NCBI GenBank assembly: GCA_964347335.1
Contig: CAYFYO010000003.1
Span: 6,180-70,179, forward strand
Direction of reading: 5' to 3'
Source: an uncultured Thermodesulfobacteriota bacterium
Lineage (GTDB): Bacteria; Desulfobacterota; BSN033; WVXP01
Length of the DNA stretch: 64,000 bases
Shown here piece by piece: positions 3,020 through 63,075 of this stretch (positions are counted from its first letter, which is position 1; each line of letters begins with the position of its first letter). The position numbers and the translations under genes were made by a program. The notes under the pieces are model-generated. The model did no database searches, was not told where the DNA came from, and saw only the letters and a program-made list of their open reading frames with translations.

Positions 3020-3639
3020 GCGTATTTTTAGCTTCGAGGTTAGAGACTTCCGCTCACCATTCCAAGATCCTCTTTTTCAAACCGACCGAGCCTGCAATCG
3101 TCGTGAATCTCCAGAATTCCTGAATCAGCCGGGCGAGGCGTGATCCGCGGTCTGATCTCAACCCTCTACGACGCTTCCGGTGAAATTATTGGAGTTTCCG
3201 GATTTTTTGGTTTCTCGCCTAACGAATATTCGCCCAACTTCCTCTGAGCCCTCCTTCAAATGTTTTGGTTCACAAACCTTCGAGATAAGGGAAAAGGAGT
3301 GTAGCGACACTCGGAATCGGATTTTTTGCACTTATCTCAATTCATGAAAGCGCATGAAGTCCGTTTCTCCATCTCTCGCAGAACGCGCTGAGATCTCTGA
3401 GTCTTGACCTGAATCGCTGAGCGGGTGAGAGAGAGTGTGGTCGGGCATTGTCCTGAAAAGCCAATATGAAGACATCTGATGCATCCGGATTCGTTATCTC
3501 ACCCATGGCGCGTTTTTTCAGATAACTCCAGTGAAATTATGGTTGATTTTTGGATTTTGGTTGCTAGAATTGATAGAGTCGAAGGCGGCCACATTCTCGG
3601 GAGCCACAGCTCAAGAGTCAGTTTTGGATTGGGGGTATC

Positions 3640-6905: not shown

Positions 6906-9479
6906 GTGGATCAAAGGATCGATCAGATTTTTCCCCTCGTATCTTGCCCAGCCCGTTACATGGGTGGGGAAAAGAATGCCGTCCAGAGGCCTTCTGACCA
7001 CGTCGAACTCCGGGTTGCCCTCGCCTTTCCCGATGTTTACGAGGTGGCCATGTCTCATGTGGGATTGGATATTCTGTACAACATCCTGAATCGAAGAGAG
7101 AATACTATCGCCGAACGGGTTTTCGCCCCATGGCCCGATATGGAAGGTCACATGAGGGCCAGAGGGATCCCTCTCGTAACACTCGAATCCTCTCGCCCCC
7201 TGCGGGATTTCGATGTTGTCGGCTTTTCACTCCAGTACGAACTCAGTTACACCAACCTTTTGAACATGCTCGATCTTGCTGGAATTCCCGTCTACGCCCG
7301 AACCCGTGGTGACGAATTTCCACTCGTGATCGCCGGTGGACCCAGCACGACTAATCCCGAGCCTATCGCAGACTTCTTGGATGCCGCCGTGATTGGAGAG
7401 GGCGAGGAGGTCATTTTGGAGATCTGCGATCGTGTCATCGAAGGAAAAAAGAATGGACGATCAAAAGCATCCCTGTTAGACGAACTCTCGCAGATCGAGG
7501 GGGTTTACGTCCCCTCCCTTTTCCATGTGGACTACCATAAGAACGGGAAGGTCAAGAGGATCGTTCCCCTTCGGGAGGATTACGGTCATGTCAGGAGAAG
7601 GATTGTTCACGATCTCAATAATATCTCCTATCCGACCGATCCCGTCGTGCCATGGTTGAAAGCAATCCATGACCGGCTGAGTGTTGAAATCGCCCGTGGA
7701 TGCAAGCGGGGCTGTCGATTTTGTCATGCGGGGTATATTTATCGCCCGTACCGCGAGCGAAGACCGGAAATCATCGAGGATATCATCAGAAAATCGCTTG
7801 ACACAACGGGCTACGAAGAGCTCTCTTTCCTCTCCCTCAGCACTGGAGACTATGGGGACATCGAGACCCTTCTCGCCAGGGTCATGGACCATTGTCAGAG
7901 AGGAAATGTGGCCCTTTCCTTTCCATCCCTTCGGGTGGAGACGCTAAACTCGGAGATGGTCCAGCAGATCAAAAGGGTTCGAAAAACAGGATTCACTTTG
8001 GCTCCGGAGGCAGCGACAGAGAGGCTGAGGCGGGTCATCAACAAGGAAATGGACGAGGAGAATCTGCTCGAGACAGCGAGAACGATTTACCACCATGGCT
8101 GGAACCTCATCAAACTCTACTTTATGATTGGCCTCCCGACCGAAACCGATGACGACGTGAGGGAGATGATTCATCTGGCCGAAAAGGTTCTCAAACAGGG
8201 CAAAGGGCTTAAGAGGCCCCCCCGCCTCAATGTGAGCGTATCGACCTTTGTGCCGAAACCCCATACCCCTTTCCAATGGGAACCCCAATTCACGCTGCCA
8301 GAGATACGTCTCAGACAGGAACTGCTTCAGAAAGGATTGAACTCTGGGAGAATCCGGTTCAAGTGGCATGACCCTAGGATGAGCCTTTTGGAGGGAGCAT
8401 TCTCCCGGGGCGGCAGGGAATTGTTTCGAGTCATTCACGATGCATGGCAAATGGGGTGCCGATTCGATGGCTGGAGCGAGTCTTTCAATTGGAAACGCTG
8501 GCTGAAAGCCTTTGAGAGGAATGGCATTGCCATCGATGCTTACACCCGACGCAGGGGGTTTTCTGAAATCCTCCCATGGAGCCATATTAAGTGCGGGGTT
8601 ACCGAGGGGTTTCTCAGAAATGAATGGGAGCGGTCCAGGGGGGAAGCCGGAACGCCTTCGTGTCGGACGGCGTGCACGGCATGTGGGATATGTGATGGAA
8701 AAGAAACCGCGGTGGTCTCTTGGAAGAAGCGCGAGAACCCTCCCGTCTCGACGATGCCCGTCCGAAAAAAAGGGGAGAAACCCATCACCCTCATCTTGGA
8801 ATTCGAGAAAGCAGGCCCTGCCAGGTTCCTGGGCCATCTCGACATGGCGAGAGCATTTCATCGTGCTGCGAGACGAGCGCGCATTCCCCTTCGATATTCC
8901 CAGGGCTTCCATCCTGCCCCCAGGATAAGTTTTGAAAGCGCTTTGGCCCTTGGCCTGGAGAGTCTGTGCGAGAAGATGAAATGGCAACTCGACATCCCCG
9001 TAGCCGATGAGTTGCTCCTGGCCGGAGTGAATCGGGAACTGCCTCCGGGACTCCACATCAAGCGACTCCTCCATGTCGGAGGAAAGCACCGTTTTGTCGG
9101 AGGAGCCGAGATGTGGTATCGGTACCTCGTGGCATTTCCCGAGGGTGTGTCGATGAGGCTTCAAAATCGGGTTCAGGAGTTCCTTGCGAGTGACCGATGG
9201 ATCGTGTCATGGGATGGGAAAGAACAGGAATATAACATCCGGCCCCATTTCGAATCGGTGATCCTTGCCAATGCGGTCTCTCTTGACGAATCTGTGATGG
9301 ATGTCTGGGCCGACCTTATCTGCGAGAAGGCGGGCTTTCTGGAAGTCATATTTCATCGAAGAGACAACATGAAGATTCGGATTGACAGAGCCCTCAGCAC
9401 AATGCTGTCTCTATCTGAGGAAACGAGGAGCCAGATCAGAATTCTCAAACTCGATGGGGCGAGCGCTCATGGTCGCTGA
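6906..9479 (+). CDS. radical SAM protein, B12-binding/rSAM domain fused to DUF2344-like C-terminal domain (TIGR03960/TIGR03936-type)
   Basis: GTG start; CxxxCxxC motif ARGCKRGCRFC; MGGEKN N-terminus; classic partner of RNase E/G genes; 857 aa. Confidence 0.8.
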   Translation: MDQRIDQIFPLVSCPARYMGGEKNAVQRPSDHVELRVALAFPDVYEVAMSHVGLDILYNILNRRENTIAERVFAPWPDMEGHMRARGIPLVTLESSRPLRDFDVVGFSLQYELSYTNLLNMLDLAGIPVYARTRGDEFPLVIAGGPSTTNPEPIADFLDAAVIGEGEEVILEICDRVIEGKKNGRSKASLLDELSQIEGVYVPSLFHVDYHKNGKVKRIVPLREDYGHVRRRIVHDLNNISYPTDPVVPWLKAIHDRLSVEIARGCKRGCRFCHAGYIYRPYRERRPEIIEDIIRKSLDTTGYEELSFLSLSTGDYGDIETLLARVMDHCQRGNVALSFPSLRVETLNSEMVQQIKRVRKTGFTLAPEAATERLRRVINKEMDEENLLETARTIYHHGWNLIKLYFMIGLPTETDDDVREMIHLAEKVLKQGKGLKRPPRLNVSVSTFVPKPHTPFQWEPQFTLPEIRLRQELLQKGLNSGRIRFKWHDPRMSLLEGAFSRGGRELFRVIHDAWQMGCRFDGWSESFNWKRWLKAFERNGIAIDAYTRRRGFSEILPWSHIKCGVTEGFLRNEWERSRGEAGTPSCRTACTACGICDGKETAVVSWKKRENPPVSTMPVRKKGEKPITLILEFEKAGPARFLGHLDMARAFHRAARRARIPLRYSQGFHPAPRISFESALALGLESLCEKMKWQLDIPVADELLLAGVNRELPPGLHIKRLLHVGGKHRFVGGAEMWYRYLVAFPEGVSMRLQNRVQEFLASDRWIVSWDGKEQEYNIRPHFESVILANAVSLDESVMDVWADLICEKAGFLEVIFHRRDNMKIRIDRALSTMLSLSEETRSQIRILKLDGASAHGR

Positions 9480-10986
9480 GCTTATTATGAATGCCTCTTT
9501 GGAGGAAACCCGGGTAGCCCTCATTGAGGGGGGCACGGTTGTGGAAGTCCATATCGAGAGAAACAAAGATCGGAGCATTGTGGGGAACATTTATCGGGGC
9601 AGAACGGTGAAGGTTCTTCCGGGCATGCAGGCGGCCTTCGTGGATATCGGCCTGGAGCGCGCGGCCTTTCTGTATGTTTCGGATGCCTATAGCAGCATCA
9701 AGGAGTATTCTCAAATGTTGAATGAGGGTTTTGAGGATCAAGATGCGCTTGAGCTTCAGTCTCCCCATCCCTCCTTCATCGAATCTGTGCAGATTGAAGA
9801 CGTCGTTCGCGAGGGCCAAGAACTTCTCGTCCAGGTTTCTCGGGAGCCTCTAGGAACCAAGGGGACCCGAATCACTTCCCATATCAGCCTTCCGGGACGA
9901 TACCTTGTCTTCATGCCAACGGTGGATCACATTGGGGTTTCGAGACGAATCAGAGACGAGTCCGAAAGGCATCGGTTGAGGGATATTGTACTCGCTGTCA
10001 GACCTCCAGGTGCAGGATTCATCGTCAGGACAGCCAGTGAAGGGGCCCATGAAGAAGAATTCCGGAATGATATGGAAATGCTGACAAAAATTTGGGAAAA
10101 CGTTCAGCGCAAAAATGACGGGGCGCCGACTCCCAGCCTGATTCACAGCGATCACGACATGGTTCTGAGGGCGATCCGGGATCTGATTACACCGGATGTA
10201 AAGCGTGTGGTCATCGATTCAGCAGAGGACTACGAAAGGATAATTCATTTTGTCGAGACCTATATGCCTCGCATAAAATGCGACATCGATCTCTATACGG
10301 GGAGGACCCCAATCTTCGATGCCCACGGCATCGAAACAGAGCTAGACAAAGCTCTGAAGCGCAAGGTCTGGCTGAAGTCTGGTGGACACATCCTCATCGA
10401 GATGACAGAGGCACTGACGGCCATTGACGTGAATACAGGCAAATTCGTCGGGAAGAGGAATCTCGAAGAGACAATACTGAAAACCAACCTCGAGGCCGCC
10501 AAGGAAATTGCTTATCAGCTTCGTTTGAGAGATATCGGCGGTATCATTATCATCGATTTCATTGACATGGAGAAAGATTCGAATCGGGAAATGGTTCATC
10601 AGGCTCTCGAACTCGCCTTAGCAAAGGATCGCACCAAATCGAATATTTCGAAAATATCCGAGTTAGGGCTCGTTGAGATGACTCGGAAAAGAACGAGAGA
10701 GAATCTTAGCCAGCTCTTGGGAGAGACCTGTCCCCATTGTGAGGGGCTTGGATATGTGAAGTCGAAGACAACGATTTGCTATGAGATTTTTAGAGAAATC
10801 GAACGAATCTCCTCCGATCTTGGCGGCGATACAGTTATGGTCGACGTCAATCCTGAAGTTGCCGAGATGCTTTGCGACGAGGAAAGAGCAGGCATAGAAC
10901 ACCTCGAAAGGAAGTTAGGTAAGAGAATCGTCGTGCAGGAGATACCTCGCTTCGAGCAGAGTGAATTTGAGATTGTGGACGTGTGA
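9469..10986 (+). CDS. rng: ribonuclease G (Rne/Rng family, S1 domain)
   Basis: MVAELIMNASLEETRVALIEGG...GNIYRGRTVKVLPGMQAAFVDIGLERAAFLYVSD aligns with the E. coli RNase G N-terminus; ATG overlaps the upstream stop by 11 nt. Confidence 0.9.
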   Translation: MVAELIMNASLEETRVALIEGGTVVEVHIERNKDRSIVGNIYRGRTVKVLPGMQAAFVDIGLERAAFLYVSDAYSSIKEYSQMLNEGFEDQDALELQSPHPSFIESVQIEDVVREGQELLVQVSREPLGTKGTRITSHISLPGRYLVFMPTVDHIGVSRRIRDESERHRLRDIVLAVRPPGAGFIVRTASEGAHEEEFRNDMEMLTKIWENVQRKNDGAPTPSLIHSDHDMVLRAIRDLITPDVKRVVIDSAEDYERIIHFVETYMPRIKCDIDLYTGRTPIFDAHGIETELDKALKRKVWLKSGGHILIEMTEALTAIDVNTGKFVGKRNLEETILKTNLEAAKEIAYQLRLRDIGGIIIIDFIDMEKDSNREMVHQALELALAKDRTKSNISKISELGLVEMTRKRTRENLSQLLGETCPHCEGLGYVKSKTTICYEIFREIERISSDLGGDTVMVDVNPEVAEMLCDEERAGIEHLERKLGKRIVVQEIPRFEQSEFEIVDV

Positions 10987-11030
10987 GGTTCACCCGATCG
11001 GATTTCACAGATCCTCCCCCAGCAGGACGA

Positions 11031-11320
11031 GGGAAAAAGGGGTAAGGAGGGGAACTCCGAACAAGCATTTGTTATTTGTCATTCGTTATTTGTTCCTTGT
11101 TATTTGTCATTTGGCACTTAACCCTCAGTCTCTCGTCTCCAGTCTCTAACCTTAGTCTCTAGCCTCTATTCTCTAATCTGTGGGCTCTAATCTCTGATCT
11201 CAACTCTCTACTCTCTCGTCTATGGCCTCTCGTCTCTGGCCTTTATCCTTGAACCTTTATCCTCTGACCCATGAGCCGGCCCCACGGCTTTCGCAAAGTC
11301 CCTCAGGGACAAAAGGATAT
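11031..11320 (+). repeat. intergenic heptanucleotide tandem-repeat element, copy 1
   Basis: About 34 consecutive degenerate 7-mers in one register (gggaaaa|aggggta|...|catttgt|tatttgt|...|tctctcg|tctccag|...|ctttatc|cttgaac|ctttatc|ctctgac), then conserved hairpin gtccctcagggac; homologous to copies at 19386 and 24030. Confidence 0.8.
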
Positions 11321-11352
11321 CTGAAACTCGAGAAATTGTTTCGAGTCGAACA

Positions 11353-11381
11353 TTGACTTTTCACGGGAAATGGCTTATTTT
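11353..11381 (+). promoter_or_regulatory. sigma70-like promoter for the rplU operon
   Basis: TTGACT-17 nt-TATTTT, 37 bp upstream of the rplU ATG. Confidence 0.5.
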
Positions 11382-15494: not shown

Positions 15495-15583
15495 GGGCCG
15501 TTCCGCAAAGACTTATGATCATAATGGGCGAACACCAAAAACTCAGGAAACTCCGCTGAAATACCAGGAAAGGGAGGGTCACG

Positions 15584-19199: not shown

Positions 19200-19385
19200 T
19201 TTCCCAACCCGATGTCTATGACGATGAAGCCTTTAAAGTTTCCAGGGTATTACATGATCAATGATCGGCACGGCTTGAATGTCCCAATGATTTCGATTTC
19301 TCCTGGTAAACTCCATTGTCTCTTCCACTCGGACGCTCCCGCTGTGACCCTCTCTGGCTTCGTACACTCTCCTGTAGGAGGTCAA

Positions 19386-19470
19386 AGGAAAAAGGGGAAA
19401 GGAGCAAGGAGAACCCGAACAGACCTGAGTCCTCTCGCTTTATCCTTGAACCTCTATCCTCTGACCCATG
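19386..19470 (+). repeat. heptanucleotide-repeat element, short derivative (copy 2)
   Basis: ggaaaaaggggaaaggagcaagg...ctttatccttgaacctctatcctctgaccc matches both ends of copy 1 but lacks the long internal array; followed by GC hairpin cccgccgcaggcggg. Confidence 0.7.
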
Positions 19471-19644
19471 TTGGTGCCCCATCCCGCCGCAGGCGGGATC
19501 GCTCACGGACCATGGAGTTCACCAGAAACTAGGGAAACTTCGGTTTCACCTTTATTGATACTAAAGGGAGAGCCGCGAACTGTCGAAAAGACTGTTGGGG
19601 GATGAAGCAAGATTTTTCAGAGCACGAAGAGGGAAGGATTATCA

Positions 19645-23917: not shown

Positions 23918-24029
23918 TCGCCCTCCCACACCCTCACATCCGTGGCGTTATCCCTGATCAGATTGTATTTGGAAGGACCCCTGAAAACCTTAAGCGTGAA
24001 AGACTTCTGGGGATTTTCCCCAGTTTTGT

Positions 24030-24300
24030 GGACGCTCATGTCCCCGAGGGACGTTTGCGGAAGCGGTGGGATTCTCAGAAAGACTGGAGACCGGAGACTG
24101 GAGACGAGAGACTAGAGATTAAAGACTGGAGACGAGAGACTACAGATTAAAGGCTAGCGGCTAAAGGCTAAGGCCAAATAGCCAATAACCAATACCCAAT
24201 GACCGATAACAAATAACTGATGACCAGTAACAAGTAACCAATAACAAACGCTCGTTAGGAGTGCATTTCCTTGAACCTTTTGCCCTTTTCCTTGATCCTG
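24030..24300 (-). repeat. intergenic heptanucleotide tandem-repeat element, inverted copy 3
   Basis: On the plus strand about 25 phased 7-mers (cggagac|tggagac|gagagac|...|caataac|...) are the reverse-complement classes of copy 1; flank gtccccgagggacgtttgcggaag is the reverse-complement homolog of the copy-1 3' flank. Confidence 0.8.
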
Positions 24301-24708
24301 CGAGAGCAGAGTCTGTGAGCCCCGAGAGGGTCAACGCGAGAGCAAGGGAGCGAAGGGATATGGGCGTTCCATCTGAAGATCCAAGATTCTTTGAAGCATC
24401 AAGAGGTTAGAAACTTCTTGCTTTGAAAACTCAGGAAACTCCAAAAGGCTTCTTCGTTGACAACGCCTTCCAAAATCGTTACCCTTGAATTCCAGGGAGG
24501 GCATAATCATGTCAGAGGCCGCGGCTTTGCCATATGACCTGGCCCTCCAGGATACCAAGAAGTGTCATCCTTCCCTATTGGAACCGCCTTCTAGGCGCAT
24601 ATCCCGATCCCCCCCTGGAAAAACTCAGCCACGAGGTGAGGACTCTTCGGATCCATGCATGAGAATCATCCCTGGAGGGTGAAGCGTATTGAGAAGAGCA
24701 AGGGAAGA

Positions 24709-26322
24709 ACGATGAAGAAAATGATGCTAATCAATGCGGCCCAGACCGGCGAATGTCGGGTGGCCATTCTGGAAGATGGAAACCTCGTGCAGCTCAACAT
24801 AGAAACGAGCGGACGAGAGAAATCGAAGGGCAACATATATCACGGCATTGTCACTCACGTCGAGCCGAGTTTCCAGGCCGCCTTCGTTGACTATGGTGGA
24901 AGACGTCATGGTTTTCTCTCCATGTCTGAAATGAATCCCCAAAATTTCGACAAACCGGCTGAAGCGAAAGAGAAACTCCGAATCGAACACTTATTGAAGC
25001 GAGGGCAAAAAATCCCCGTCCAGGTGATAAAGGAAGAGACATCGAACAAGGGGGCAGCGCTGACGACCTATATCTCCCTTCCGGGAAGGTACCTCGTTTT
25101 GATGCCAGGAAGCAAGAGCCATGGCGTGTCTCGGAAGATCGGAGACGAAAAACGGCGAGCAAGGCTTAAGGAGATTGTCAAAGACTTCAAATTGCCTGAG
25201 GGGATGGGCTTTATCGTTCGAACAGCAGGTGTGGACGAGAGCAAAAGGGAACTTTTCAGGGACTGCTCATACCTGTTACGACTGTGGGAAAGTATACAGG
25301 CAAAAATGCAAGAAATCCCCGCACCTTCGCTGCTTTATCAGGAGAGCCATGTCCTTATACAGTCCATCCGAGAGTATTTCACTACGGACATGGAGGTTCT
25401 CGTAGATGACAAAGAAGCCTATCGCGAGGTTAAAGATTTCTTTCGGCAGTTGATGGCTCAATACCAGCGAAGGGTAAAACTCTATCAAGACAAAAGGCCC
25501 CTTTTTGCCGCATTCAACCTGGAAGAGCAGATCGAGGCCATCTACGCTCGCGAAGTTCCTCTGAGATCGGGCGGAAGCATCTCCATCGATCCCACCGAGG
25601 CACTTGTCTCTATCGATGTGAACTCTGGGAGACTCGGAAAGTCCAAGAGCATTGAACAGACAGCCCTCAACACGAATCTGGAGGCGGCAGAGGAAATCGC
25701 CCGACAATTGCGGTTGAGAGATCTGGGTGGGCTCATCGTCATCGATTTCATCGATATGAAGGACCGGAAACACAACATGGAGGTGGAACGCTGCCTTCGC
25801 AATGGGTTAAAGAAGGACAAGGCCAAGACGGATATCTCCCGGATTTCGAAATTTGGGCTCTTAGAGATGTCTCGACAGAGACTCAAGACCCCCCTGGCCG
25901 AAGAGAGCTACAAAGTTTGCTCCTATTGTCGCGGTCGGGGGAGGGTAAAATCCACAGAGTCCGTGGCGCTCGTGGTCTTGCGGAAGATCCTCGAAAGGGT
26001 CATTGAGGGGAACGTGGCCCTCGTCAAAGGGGCGTTCTCAAGGCCCGTGGCGACACACCTTCTCAACCGTAAGCGAAGAGAGATCGCCGAAATCGAAAGG
26101 GAGTTTCATCTTCAAATCTGGTTTACCAGTCAGTGGGAAATGGCCCCAGATGAATACGACCTCGAGTTTCTGACCCGTGAGGAACTCGAAAGGCTCGAGG
26201 AGGGAGAAATCGAAAAGGAAAGGCACCCCCTCGGTTCCAAGTCAATCCCAATACCCTCTTTGCCAAGGTTTGAGGATGATGCGGTCAAGAAACCCTGGTA
26301 TCTAAAGATCCTCAGGCGATGA
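24709..26322 (+). CDS. ribonuclease E/G family protein (second paralog)
   Basis: S1 domain and catalytic-domain homology to Rne/Rng (GNIYHGIVTHVEPSFQAAFVDYG); AAGGGA RBS before ATG 24709; preceded by a roughly 400-nt leader. Confidence 0.85.
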   Translation, partial: TMKKMMLINAAQTGECRVAILEDGNLVQLNIETSGREKSKGNIYHGIVTHVEPSFQAAFVDYGGRRHGFLSMSEMNPQNFDKPAEAKEKLRIEHLLKRGQKIPVQVIKEETSNKGAALTTYISLPGRYLVLMPGSKSHGVSRKIGDEKRRARLKEIVKDFKLPEGMGFIVRTAGVDESKRELFRDCSYLLRLWESIQAKMQEIPAPSLLYQESHVLIQSIREYFTTDMEVLVDDKEAYREVKDFFRQLMAQYQRRVKLYQDKRPLFAAFNLEEQIEAIYAREVPLRSGGSISIDPTEALVSIDVNSGRLGKSKSIEQTALNTNLEAAEEIARQLRLRDLGGLIVIDFIDMKDRKHNMEVERCLRNGLKKDKAKTDISRISKFGLLEMSRQRLKTPLAEESYKVCSYCRGRGRVKSTESVALVVLRKILERVIEGNVALVKGAFSRPVATHLLNRKRREIAEIEREFHLQIWFTSQWEMAPDEYDLEFLTREELERLEEGEIEKERHPLGSKSIPIPSLPRFEDDAVKKPWYLKILRR

Positions 26323-29057: not shown

Positions 29058-29699
29058 CGCCCTTAGGCGAGCTTTCGCGGTGATAGTTATTACAAAAAAC
29101 CCTCGAAAAAATCAATGATCAATGGATGAGGAGTTAGCCCGTTCTTCAATGCAGCGTTGGCCTATGATTTTGATTTTGTTCAAAAATCCAATTTGCGAAG
29201 TGGATTCTCCCATCCCTTCGCTCCCACGCTCTCACGGTGACCCTATGGCGGTTCGCAGGTGGGGAAAGCCTCCCCCTTCCTGCTCACACGCGGCGGGTAC
29301 CCCACCGCTTCCGCTGACGCCGCTCAGGAATAAGAGAATCCGCCACAACTGAGGAAGGTGCTCCCATACTCCTGGTTGACCTCCGAATTTCTGGGACAAC
29401 TCCTCTCGATGGGTCCGAATATCCACAGCCCAGATTCGGAACATCCGAAAATAATATCGGAAATAGTGGATCTGCGGATCTGGAGTTCACCAACATGGTT
29501 CTGGGAGAATATTTTGAAATGTGATTGACTCGAACCGAGAAACCTGGAATCATAATGAATCCAGGACACCCTTGCTGCCCTCAGTGACAATCGAATGAGT
29601 TCCATGAATTCCACCGGGCCAAGCGGCTACCTCGGGGCTTAAGAACCCCTCGGGCAGTTTTCGTCTCAGTCAACATGCTCGGAGGAGGAGAGACCCTCT

Positions 29700-45759: not shown

Positions 45760-46128
45760 TCGCAGATCTCGAGAGTCGAGGAATTGATCTACCTTGCTAT
45801 ATTATATCTTGGCTAGGCCTGTCAAATGCGCTCGAACAGATTTCACAACGAATCGCGTGGGGGGCCCCAATCAATACATGCGAAGCGTGGACGCTTTTGA
45901 TCTGAATCGCCCTCTCAGCGATTCGGGGCGAAACTCAGAGATCTCCGTGTGCTCCGGGAGAGATGGAAACGGGCTTCATGCGCCTGCACGAATTGAGATA
46001 AGTGTAAGAATCTGATTCCAAAAAGTCCGAAAACACCAGACGCTGTCTCCTTGACAAAACCGGGAAGGGTGATTAGTTTTCCGTCCAGCAGGAGATATTG
46101 GACGCTCGGCTCCATTAACGCTCCATTC

Positions 46129-58344: not shown

Positions 58345-58713
58345 GTGAGTCTGTCCGGCCTTTGGATTTCCTGTCGATAATCCCTCTGTCCAAAAGGATC
58401 CATCCTGGAGATCTCCCGCAGCATACTCTCCGAGGCACCGGCGTGAAGGGTGAGCGTCTGATCAATCATCCGCGAACGTCTCTCGGGAATATGAGCATTC
58501 ACGAAAGCCACTGAAATTAAGAATATTTTCGGATGAAGGAACGCTCAAAGGGACCTGGGCCACTGGCCTCTTGGGGGCGACCGAAAAAGTCCGGAAACTC
58601 TTCATCAATCATCCTTGAAAACCCCTCGCCCAAAGAAATATATTGCAAGTTAAAGCCTTCGTCCACGGCCTCAACGTTGGCCTCCCGCCTCAGGCCTTCT
58701 CTCGGGGTTAGCA

Positions 58714-62610: not shown

Positions 62611-62783
62611 GAAACGACCAAATCCGCCTCCACTGTTCCGAGAGTTCCGGGCCCCCACCTGTCAGCGCGGGTCCACAAGGTCTAGAAATCCCGCGGAAGT
62701 AAACGGTTTGTGCGACTTCGTAAAACCCTCGCGTCTTTAAGCGAGATTGCGGAAGGGGTAGGGAATCCATCCGAGAATACCTG

Positions 62784-62812: not shown

Positions 62813-62821
62813 CTGAGTCAC

Positions 62822-63075
62822 GAAATGTTTGGGTGTAGGGAAGACGGTGAGAAGCCGTCGCGGACCCGCCGCTGTGAGTGGGGACGAAAGCCACAGAGTG
62901 GGCCACTATTTCGCTCGAGCGGAATGGGAAGGCGTGGTGAGTAGGAGGATCCACGAGCCAGAAAACCTGCCCAAGACGTTGCTCCAAAAACATTCCTCGA
63001 GGGGTGGGAATATGGAGTCGGCGAGGGAAGTCGGTCTGATCGCAATCCGGGGTCAGGCTTTTTTTGTCTTCGAGA
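62822..63075 (+). ncRNA. cobalamin (B12) riboswitch, cis-regulatory leader
   Basis: GGGAAGACGGTGAGAAGCCGTCGCGGACCCGCCGCTGTGAGTGGGGACGAAAGCCACAG core and B12 box GAGCCAGAAAACCTGCCC; T-run GGCTTTTTTTG about 63058-63068. Confidence 0.75.

Follow-up and report, generated by a model that had tools for sequence, protein, structure and literature searches.

The spacer upstream of an RNase E-like gene (rne) in an uncultured Thermodesulfobacteriota bacterium contains a long array of heptanucleotides. Here, we analyze that array within a stretch of 64,000 nucleotides (nt) of contig CAYFYO010000003.1 (assembly GCA_964347335.1, positions 6,180 to 70,179), hereafter called the window, to which all coordinates refer. 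[quoted passage not shown] The identification rests on four features taken together: terminal inverted repeats, duplication of the target site, a small size with no coding capacity, and a large number of dispersed copies. MITEs are already known; this one stands out for the compound heptanucleotide array in its interior, which moves along with it. A preliminary description of this DNA had recognized the array as an inverted counterpart of a second heptad element, located upstream of rplU, and had hinted at a regulatory or RNA-processing role. We call the element upstream of rplU copy 1 and the element upstream of rne copy 2.

Anatomy of the element upstream of rne

Copy 2 is a full-length copy of 438 nt on the - strand (24007-24444), as delimited by nhmmer searches, by alignment, and by its inverted repeats. 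Specifically, a hidden Markov model (HMM) of the family, built from 29 canonical copies that all come from outside the window, matches copy 2 in two blocks: model positions 2-133 align at 24443-24313 (E 7e-35) and positions 198-264 align at 24077-24011 (E 1.7e-15). In the alignment, the heptad block between them (24078-24312) takes the place of the canonical GC-hairpin module at model positions ~134-197. The element is bracketed by a target-site duplication, AAAGACTT on the left (23999-24006) and AAAGGCTT on the right (24444-24451), with a 7/8 match between the two. The preliminary description had placed the limits of the element at 24030-24300. The array is indeed there, but the true unit runs from 24007 to 24444.

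The conserved parts of copy 2 surround the array, and like the element they read on the - strand. The left arm (ATCCCTTCGCTCCCTTGCTCTCGCGTTGACCCT..., 24313-24444) accounts for the stronger of the two nhmmer matches, includes the terminal inverted repeat of the 5' end (24424-24444), and holds the 22-nt block that served as the query for our metagenome scan. The right arm (24030-24077), identified by alignments and the HMM, contains the small palindrome GTCCCCGAGGGAC and the stretch CGCAAAC...GCGGAAGCGG; this arm is what the preliminary description called the flank. The terminal inverted repeat of the 3' end (24007-24029) reads CTGGGGATTTTCCCCAGTTTTGT on the + strand and aligns to the family repeat GGAGTTTCCTCAGTTTTGTGG. 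Repeats of the GGAGTTTCCTSAGTTTT type thus lie at 24009-24027 and 24424-24442. There is no open reading frame (ORF) of at least 80 amino acids (aa) inside copy 2.

The 3'-end repeat also resembles a transcription terminator. CTGGGGATTTTCCCCAG followed by TTTTGTGG at 24007-24031, 90 nt past the stop codon of a NUDIX gene, forms a GC-rich hairpin with a T-run and conforms to the pattern of an intrinsic terminator; the terminator-like match itself covers 24007-24023 plus TTTTGTGG. The canonical terminal repeat of the family makes a poorer hairpin than this mutated one. The terminator-like hairpin that follows NUDIX is copy 2's own, slightly mutated terminal repeat.

A dispersed family in marine-sediment bacteria

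The family is abundant outside the window. The 22-nt block GAGAGCNNGGGAGCGAAGGGAT from the left arm of copy 2 matches more than 119 metagenome contigs, a lower bound, and almost all of these contigs come from the pooled marine-sediment assemblies JABAOC, JABAOD, JABAOF, and JABAOH. JABAOH is the assembly of a study of the Gulfs of Kathiawar (PMC8319310). The loci that we compared carry the labels L001-L003 (syntenic rne loci), L004-L029 (matches from a genome collection), L030-L148 (metagenome MITE loci, 889 kb fetched), and L149 (GCA_011772575.1). The best nucleotide match of any fetched contig to the window is ~81%. Where the same loci were recovered in three pooled assemblies (L054, L056, L063), they differ only by single-nucleotide polymorphisms. 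A separate query, TCCTTGAACCTNTATCCTCTGACCC, which is the right end common to copy 1 and a further window copy, copy 3, gave 0 matches in the genome collection.

Among the matches listed, 73-74 non-redundant full copies possess the same inverted repeats. Family conservation starts abruptly at GGAGTTTCCTGAGTTTTCAAAGC and stops abruptly at CAAAACTGAGGAAACTCC, giving the edges GGAGTTTCC... and ...GGAAACTCC. The terminal inverted repeats, (NN)GGAGTTTCCTSAGTTTT, are imperfect and about 17-19 nt long (19-21 nt in copy 2); they read GGAGTTTCCTSAGTTTT at one end and AAAACTSAGGAAACTCC at the other. With up to 3 mismatches allowed, GGAGTTTCCTSAGTTTT has 242 matches in the loci, paired at a modal spacing of 261-262 nt. 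The modal element length is likewise 261-262 nt, with further classes at 242, 287, 293, 333, and ~500 nt and a full range of 225-540 nt.

The copies also bear the mark of insertion. At a distance of 2 nt beyond GGAG there is an 8-bp direct duplication. Of 73 copies, 20 show it without a mismatch and 27 with agreement in at least 7 of 8 positions, and the count falls to zero at the control offsets 0, 1, and 4. The two bases between the duplication and GGAG are complementary at both ends (GA..TC, GT..AC, CT..AG), and therefore lengthen the inverted repeat. The A+T content of the target sites is 62%, and no long ORF overlaps 71 of the 74 copies, which places them in intergenic DNA. Ten sampled metagenome copies adjoin genes for an acyl-CoA synthetase, a cytidylyltransferase-like protein, a choline/APH kinase, an FAD oxidoreductase, PurE, HflX, a beta-eliminating lyase, and GAF, PAS, and PilZ proteins. 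By crude stop-to-stop ORF calls, the genes flanking the 74 full copies are divergent in 15 cases, co-directional in 22, and convergent in 2.

The notion of a dispersed family in both orientations, put forward in the preliminary description, thus holds: related genomes harbor more than 100 copies of this MITE family, and the window contains four copies plus remnants.

Within the window, copy 1 (~10987-11339, + strand) belongs to the same subfamily as copy 2. It is truncated at its 5' end, has a long compound heptad array, and sits between the stop codon of rng and the promoter of rplU; its right arm lies at 11280-11337 (E 1.7e-6). Copy 3 (19236-19541, + strand) is a diverged full-length copy between comF-like and asmA-like genes, with HMM matches of E 1e-3 and 0.014, and has a short heptad hairpin only (AAGGNNN x4 ... 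NNNCCTT x4). Copy 4 (29129-29356, + strand), upstream of icd, is full length, represents a second subfamily, and has no heptad array; nhmmer aligns it to model positions 2-259 (E 9.9e-33), and it forms inverted-repeat pairs with copy 2. A repeat search adds a solo terminal repeat remnant, AAAACTCAGGAAACTCC, between proA and nadD (15538-15554, + strand), and the HMM adds weak remnants with partial arm matches at 58468-58507 and at 62717-62771, the latter on the - strand. Other neighbors of the window copies are thus asmA-like, icd, and nadD genes. A second, inverted occurrence of copy 2's outer flanks (24030-24070 and 24313-24359), here only ~40 nt apart, lies at 29212-29341, and a 33-nt end of copy 1 is found again at 19438-19470. 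These recurrences suggest that the family is defined by its conserved flanks and not by the heptads.

Two side observations concern these copies. Three ORFs of 80-106 aa lie wholly over copy 3 (19212-19532 on the + strand, 19258-19506 on the - strand, and 19316-19558 on the + strand); they are probably spurious, and gene callers would likely mis-annotate MITE copies of this kind. Also, a cobalamin riboswitch (RF00174, 97 bits) is present at 62814-62988 on the + strand, and the MITE right-arm remnant at 62717-62771 (E 0.004) is located just upstream of its putative promoter.

The heptad array of copy 2

A period of 7 is confined to two places in the 64 kb of the window. Sliding autocorrelation, with periods 3-13 scanned in 63-nt windows at a cut-off of at least 0.55, detects it at 11037-11295 and 24062-24260; all other periods are silent at that cut-off, except for a few windows at period 9. 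Tandem Repeats Finder (TRF) reports arrays of period 7, 14, 21, and 28 at both places. The array of copy 2 consists of 29 heptads at 24079-24302 that share a single, unbroken 7-nt register, including across a unique junction, although exact heptad counts may be collapsed and the counts in the window are perhaps underestimates, as the assembly looks like a short-read metagenome assembly. The earlier estimate of about 25 phased heptads is borne out.

The heptads fall into classes that succeed one another along the array, all belonging to the - strand of the element. The first ten (24079-24148) are of the GAGAC class, NNGAGAC on the + strand and GTCTCYN on the - strand. From 24079 on, the + strand reads AAAGACT GGAGACC GGAGACT GGAGACG AGAGACT AGAGATT AAAGACT GGAGACG AGAGACT ACAGATT. 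This block shows super-periods of 14 and 28 nt, and TRF detects periods of 7, 14, and 28 at 24081-24152. Four transitional heptads of the AAAGGCT class, akin to the CCTTTAG class of the other strand, come next in TRF output and the phased listing (24149-24176; AAAGGCT AGCGGCT AAAGGCT AAGGCCA). Ten heptads of the AATAACC/GATGACC class, TTGGTTA/TCGGTCA on the - strand, occupy 24177-24246 (AATAGCC AATAACC AATACCC AATGACC GATAACA AATAACT GATGACC AGTAACA AGTAACC AATAACA); TRF finds 9.9 copies of period 7 at 24177-24245. The unique 21-nt junction (24247-24267, reverse complement GCACTCCTAACGAGCGTT) corresponds to the loop of an ancestral heptad hairpin and is common to copy 1. Finally, five heptads of the CCTT class, AAGGNNN on the - strand (24268-24302; TCCTTGA ACCTTTT GCCCTTT TCCTTGA TCCTGCG), represent the 5' arm of the heptad-hairpin module and align with the AAAGGAAAAAGGCAAAAGGTTCAAGGAG arm of loci L039 and L050.

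Copy 1 and the reverse complement of copy 2 align with 78% mean column identity over ~300 columns, and the alignment extends into the flank CCCACSGCTTYCGCAAA(C)GTCCCTCRGGGAC, where the small palindrome lies. The junction pattern ACTCCnAACnAGCnTTTGTTATT is located only at 11054 (+ strand) and 24240 (- strand), that is, in copies 1 and 2. Because this junction is unique to both copies and their non-repetitive arms match an HMM built from outside the window, the likeness extends beyond low complexity. The preliminary description had proposed such an alignment and had seen copy 2 as an inverted copy of copy 1, hairpin flank included. Unit classes, their order, the junction, and the flank all match in reverse complement, and the similarity is not merely one of composition.

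Origin and spread of the heptads

Copies of the family differ in their interiors. Alternatives include GC hairpins, a short heptad hairpin of the form (AAGGNNN)4 - loop - (NNNCCTT)4, nested extra sequence, and the expanded array. In the 287-294-nt copies L039, L050, L054, L060, and L063, the GC hairpins are replaced by (AAGGNNN)x4, the loop ACCACTCCCAACAAAC, and (NNNCCTT)x4. In L039 the heptad arms pair, and the whole element forms one long hairpin (z = -3.9); the expanded copy 2 as a whole shows no such folding (z = +0.16). Copy 1, copy 2, and a third locus, L110:927-1222, possess the same arms and loop junction, plus long TTGGTTA and GTCTCYN arrays. Their compound arrays span 170-300 nt and contain 3-4 heptad classes in a single register. 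The array of copy 2 is an expanded form of the short heptad hairpin known from other copies.

The third long-array copy, L110:927-1222, contains ~27 GAGAC-class and at least 16 AATAACC-class units, differs from the others in arm sequences, and has an NNNN gap inside its array, which indicates that assemblers struggle with such arrays. The junction GTCATTTGGCACTT is common to copy 1 and L110. Given that GTCATTTGGCACTT and ACTCCnAACnAGCnTTTGTTATT are shared, the compound array must have originated a single time or a few times and reached unrelated loci afterwards. More than one species possesses it, since nucleotide identity to the window is at most ~81% in the fetched contigs.

Within this shared plan, the units themselves change. 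Unit numbers vary between copies 1, 2, and L110, as judged from phased layouts and a tally of the motifs GTCTC and GGTYA/TGTYA, and L060 has one CCTTTAT unit more than L039. The classes grade into one another in fixed register: TTATTGG > CTATTTG > GCCTTAG > CCTTTAG > CCTTTAA > TCTGTAG > TCTCTCG. The unbroken register, the gradual class change, and the super-periods of 14, 21, and 28 nt point to slippage combined with mutation. The likeliest mode of growth is by steps of 7 nt, through replication slippage or unequal exchange. Heptanucleotide repeats are over-represented in bacteria, and slippage has been proposed to account for them, as summarized in PMC4679880 and PMC4692102, both of which cite Mrazek et al. 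2007 for the 7-nt preference of bacterial intergenic tandem repeats. Among short tandem periods in the 889 kb of host-lineage contigs, 7 (along with 14) again predominates.

Heptad arrays are not restricted to this family or to this lineage. Four further loci (L043:1780-2080, L097:2693-2988, L037:2400-2507, and L055:8994-9270) contain compound heptad arrays with the units CCTTTNN, CTGACTT, GGTCAGN, TTGGATT, and CTCTTSA, and MITE arms were not found around them. Thus, heptad arrays of these sediment bacteria are not confined to the MITE. Farther afield, the 19-mer AGTCTCTCGTCTCCAGTCT, which comprises three GTCTCYN units and is present in copies 1 and 2 (11128-11146, 24094-24112, and 24122-24140), has 26 exact matches in a collection with one genome per species, against ~4 expected naively. 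The hosts are metagenome-assembled genomes of at least 7 phyla, including Chloroflexota, Planctomycetota, Acidobacteriota, Bacteroidota, Kiritimatiellae, and Desulfatiglandaceae. Roughly half of the matches fall within period-7 arrays or belong to inverted pairs built as (GAGACNN)n - loop - (NNGTCTC)n, and the cross-phylum arrays are often fused in register to other heptad classes; a few matches, for example one in an rpsS-rplV spacer, look like chance. A literature search by exact heptamers returned unrelated papers only.

The scheme we propose is as follows. The inverted repeats would be bound by a transposase provided in trans, which would make cuts staggered by 8 bp; the element inserts into A+T-rich intergenic DNA with an 8-bp duplication. 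Since only the ends would be needed for movement, the interior would be free to vary. The heptad hairpin could then expand by 7-nt slippage or unequal exchange, with point mutations amplified into sub-arrays, and the resulting array would move with the element to new sites. In this fashion, copy 2 may have landed, or been kept, 12 nt upstream of the rne -35 element and just downstream of NUDIX. Any effects on rne would be incidental: upstream DNA displaced by 438 bp, and a terminator-like hairpin derived from the mutated terminal repeat.

Relationship to rne and rplU

The rne-like gene downstream of copy 2 (24712-26322, + strand, with the start at 24712 or 24724) encodes a member of the Rne/Rng family (NCBIfam TIGR00757, E 1.5e-151) that is 100% identical to protein P0001 (532 aa). 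Together with the RNase G-like gene at 9382-10986, it makes two Rne/Rng paralogs in the window. Directly upstream of, and overlapping, the RNase G-like gene is a radical SAM protein gene of the TIGR03960/TIGR03936 fusion type (6906-10986).

A promoter-like pair for the rne-like gene, TTGACA-N17-TACCCT, lies outside the element at 24457-24485 on the + strand; its function is predicted from conservation. Specifically, it is an invariant block when compared with L001-L003, and the corresponding pair in L149 is TTGACA-N17-TAACTT. The -35/-10 pair is conserved in four other genomes (five loci), among them L001-L003, which are without the element. The rne spacer aligns to L001-L003 only from ~24440 on, and the first invariant block reads CGTTGACAA...AAAA..GTTACYCTT. 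Copy 2 ends (24444) 12 nt before the -35 element (24457), so it would be located upstream of the predicted rne promoter and outside the 5' untranslated region (UTR). Similarly, the end of copy 1 (~11339) falls ~13 nt before the predicted rplU promoter, TTGACT-N17-TATTTT, at 11353-11381. The preliminary description was therefore right that the two copies precede the rplU-obg and rne-like operons, but the predicted promoters lie downstream of the elements, which puts neither copy within a 5' UTR.

Comparison with relatives gives a consistent picture. The syntenic loci L001-L003 (77% RNase E identity) contain neither the MITE nor a period-7 array, and the outside-only HMM is silent on them. A promoter-like pair and a partly conserved leader of ~220 nt (24457-24723) are common to L001, L002, L003, and L149, and this leader is a more plausible place for rne autoregulation than the MITE. 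In L149 (WVZF01000418.1, positions 241-772; 82% RNase E identity), a 532-nt MITE copy in the same orientation lies 13 nt before the same rne -35 element, within 1-2 nt of the site of copy 2. Its interior is different, with GTCAGTN heptads and without the arrays of copy 2. The L149 copy could be an old shared insertion or the product of repeated targeting.

The properties of the array as RNA do not suggest a function either. Relative to the downstream gene, copies 1 and 2 have opposite orientations, so that one of them would give a pyrimidine-rich RNA and the other a purine-rich RNA. As RNA, the array folds no better than shuffled sequence (z = -0.8), and the same is true of the whole element, at the value given above. 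Rfam yields no match to the element at E up to 1. Of the features expected of a cis-regulatory RNA in a 5' UTR, namely location in the leader, conservation with the gene, and structure, we found none, with promoter positions being predicted. We considered specific roles and dropped them: a CsrA sponge acting through GGA in the GGAGAC units, since neither the copies nor the two orientations agree in their number of GGA motifs; a Rho rut site on the C-rich, G-poor strand, since the copies are oppositely oriented to transcription; and a structured RNA, since there is no Rfam match and no excess folding.

The hint of a regulatory or RNA-processing role accordingly lacks support on several counts: the elements are upstream of predicted promoters, absent from the relatives with 77% RNase E identity, placed beside unrelated neighbors, and devoid of excess folding or an Rfam match. 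Although a dedicated signal of this kind is unsupported, incidental effects on adjoining promoters may exist.

Weighing the explanations

The MITE reading is the one we favor strongly, and the following observations weigh against it or bound it. No parent transposase turned up: in the 889 kb fetched, family inverted repeats spaced 700-4000 nt from each other do not enclose any transposase gene, and both the route of mobilization and the present activity of the family are putative. The pairs themselves, examined as possible autonomous partners, were rejected because they are neighboring MITEs around ordinary genes. Retention of the MITE at the rne site in L149 could signify long retention, possibly by selection over neutrality. 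The bias toward divergent flanking genes, which comes from crude ORF calls, suggests insertion or retention near promoters. As for the array, slippage is read from its pattern, and it accounts neither for the 7-nt size of the unit nor for the recurrence of identical GTCTCYN units in distant phyla. These last two points are what a different idea would accommodate, namely that the arrays arise from a conserved process or ligand with a 7-nt step, such as a phased single-strand binder or a repeat-generating activity, with MITEs spreading the arrays and the rne and rplU copies exapted. This idea fits the cross-phylum, one-register arrays with GTCTCYN or NNNCAGT-type units and their closeness to the short tandemly repeated repetitive (STRR) units of cyanobacteria; we nevertheless regard it as improbable. 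Equally improbable, in our judgment, is a domesticated array for which the MITE is only the carrier, serving as a phased protein platform (for a cold-shock/S1-type OB fold with a ~7-nt footprint, or for a nucleoid protein) or as a length-variable spacer that tunes promoters. Both long arrays abut predicted promoters, there may be a bias to promoter-containing spacers, two species keep a MITE at the rne site, and near-identical heptad units and one-register compound arrays occur across many phyla. There is precedent as well: one CspB protein binds each heptamer in heptamer direct repeats, according to work cited in PMC4679880, and heptad repeats in the ctxAB promoter recruit regulators, according to 10.1101/2021.05.14.444153. 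However, the elements have no candidate binding protein associated with them, the units of an array are free to drift in sequence, long arrays are missing from most copies of the family, and orientation to the promoter is not conserved.

A signal in the 5' UTRs of RNA-metabolism and translation operons, for instance a platform for RNase E/G cleavage or binding, is very unlikely. Two of the three known long-array copies do lie upstream of rplU-rpmA-obg and the rne-like gene, the partly conserved leader of the latter recalls the autoregulation of E. coli rne, and the related genome L149 keeps the same MITE at the same site. Yet both long-array copies stop upstream of the predicted -35 elements, the rne promoter and leader are conserved in L001-L003 without the element, the L149 copy has no such arrays in its different interior, more than 100 family copies sit beside unrelated genes, and orientation, folding, and Rfam results argue the same way. 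We give still less credence to an element related to repetitive extragenic palindromes (REP) and bacterial interspersed mosaic elements (BIME), or to the insertion sequences of the IS200/IS605 type, moved by a Y1 transposase via small hairpins such as GTCCCTCAGGGAC. The arms do contain several short GC-rich palindromes. REP/BIME and IS200/IS605-type elements, however, are not known to duplicate their target or to have terminal inverted repeats, whereas clear 17-19-nt inverted repeats and an 8-bp duplication are present here. Least credible of all, to the point of being negligible, is an assembly artifact or chance low-complexity similarity. Short-read assemblers do perform poorly on tandem repeats, as the N gap in the L110 array attests, but unique MITE arms that match well surround the arrays, a duplication of its own flanks copy 2, the family is present in several independent assemblies, and copies 1 and 2 have diverged.

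A second repeat

The window also holds a second, unrelated repeat of ~115-135 nt, in two inverted copies with 81% identity (3301-3435 on the + strand and 45907-46019 on the - strand). It sits where long ORFs are few or absent, and its second arm partly overlaps a 172-aa minus-strand ORF. Rfam offers no match for the repeat, and the 889 kb of metagenome loci contain no copy of it. A small RNA gene and a further repeat family are both candidate identities.

Significance

Identification of the element as a MITE frees the rne and rplU upstream regions of a regulatory label that was tempting but had no support, and it flags ORFs that lie over such elements (19212-19532) as probably spurious. The consensus and HMM provide a means of masking a repeat family of more than 100 copies in an uncultured marine-sediment lineage. 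More generally, the family offers a clean example of a MITE with a swappable interior, able to carry a hypervariable microsatellite between sites, and thus one concrete route for the dispersal of heptanucleotide arrays in a genome. It also adds a new lineage to the question of 7-nt repeats, along with near-identical units that recur across phyla.

Comparison with known systems

Named bacterial MITEs include Correia/NEMIS of Neisseria, Nezha of cyanobacteria, and Chunjie of Geobacter. Like bacterial MITEs in general, the present family is short, non-coding, present in many copies, mostly intergenic, bounded by inverted repeats and a duplication of fixed length, divided into subfamilies, and subject to nesting. 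It departs from them in the heptanucleotide arrays inside and in its host, which belongs to an uncultured marine-sediment lineage. The pneumococcal BOX elements are comparable in that conserved end modules enclose a variable number of internal units, but the internal BOX unit is ~45 nt, compared to 7 nt here.

Among heptamer repeats, the STRR units CCCCAGT, TTGGTCA, and CAACAGT of heterocystous cyanobacteria are the natural reference. They too are intergenic tandem heptamers that occur in both orientations with several unit types side by side, and the units CTCCAGT and TCGGTCA/CTGGTCA found here are one base off STRR1 and STRR2. The exact STRR units are not those of the arrays here, which consist of GTCTCYN (rotated, CTCCAGT), TTGGTTA/TCGGTCA, and CCTTTAT. 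The host, moreover, is not a cyanobacterium; its nearest protein homologs are labeled Proteobacteria or Deltaproteobacteria bacterium. The arrays here, furthermore, reside inside a transposable element with inverted repeats and a duplication. STRR repeats in Calothrix are noted in PMC4692102.

Other intergenic heptamers have been described in several lineages. PMC4679880 reports TAACTGA and other heptamers in Beggiatoaceae, Cyanobacteria, and Bacteroidetes, and PMC4692102 reports GGGAATC/GGGGAYT repeats in Xanthomonas and Nostoc. These repeats, like ours, are intergenic and absent from the orthologous spacers of close relatives, and slippage of a polymerase with a ~7-nt footprint has been proposed for them. 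Many of them lie directly upstream of start codons (TAACTGA) or can form G-quadruplexes; the arrays here do neither, and TAACTGA occurs only once in copy 2. The portions of PMC4679880 and PMC4692102 available to us mention no MITE context for their heptamers.

Compared by architecture only, the closest described element appears to be the BrickBuilt MITE of Porphyromonas gingivalis, in which a tandem array of variable length lies between a leader and a tail, the ends are small inverted repeats, and the location is always intergenic (PMC4596501). Copy 1, copy 2, and L110 likewise enclose an array of variable copy number between a conserved leader and tail. BrickBuilt has a single kind of unit, 23 nt long, whereas the units here are 7 nt and form 3-4 intergrading classes in one register. 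Finally, the array of the present family is one of several alternative modules, and most copies do without it, a flexibility that distinguishes this family from BrickBuilt.

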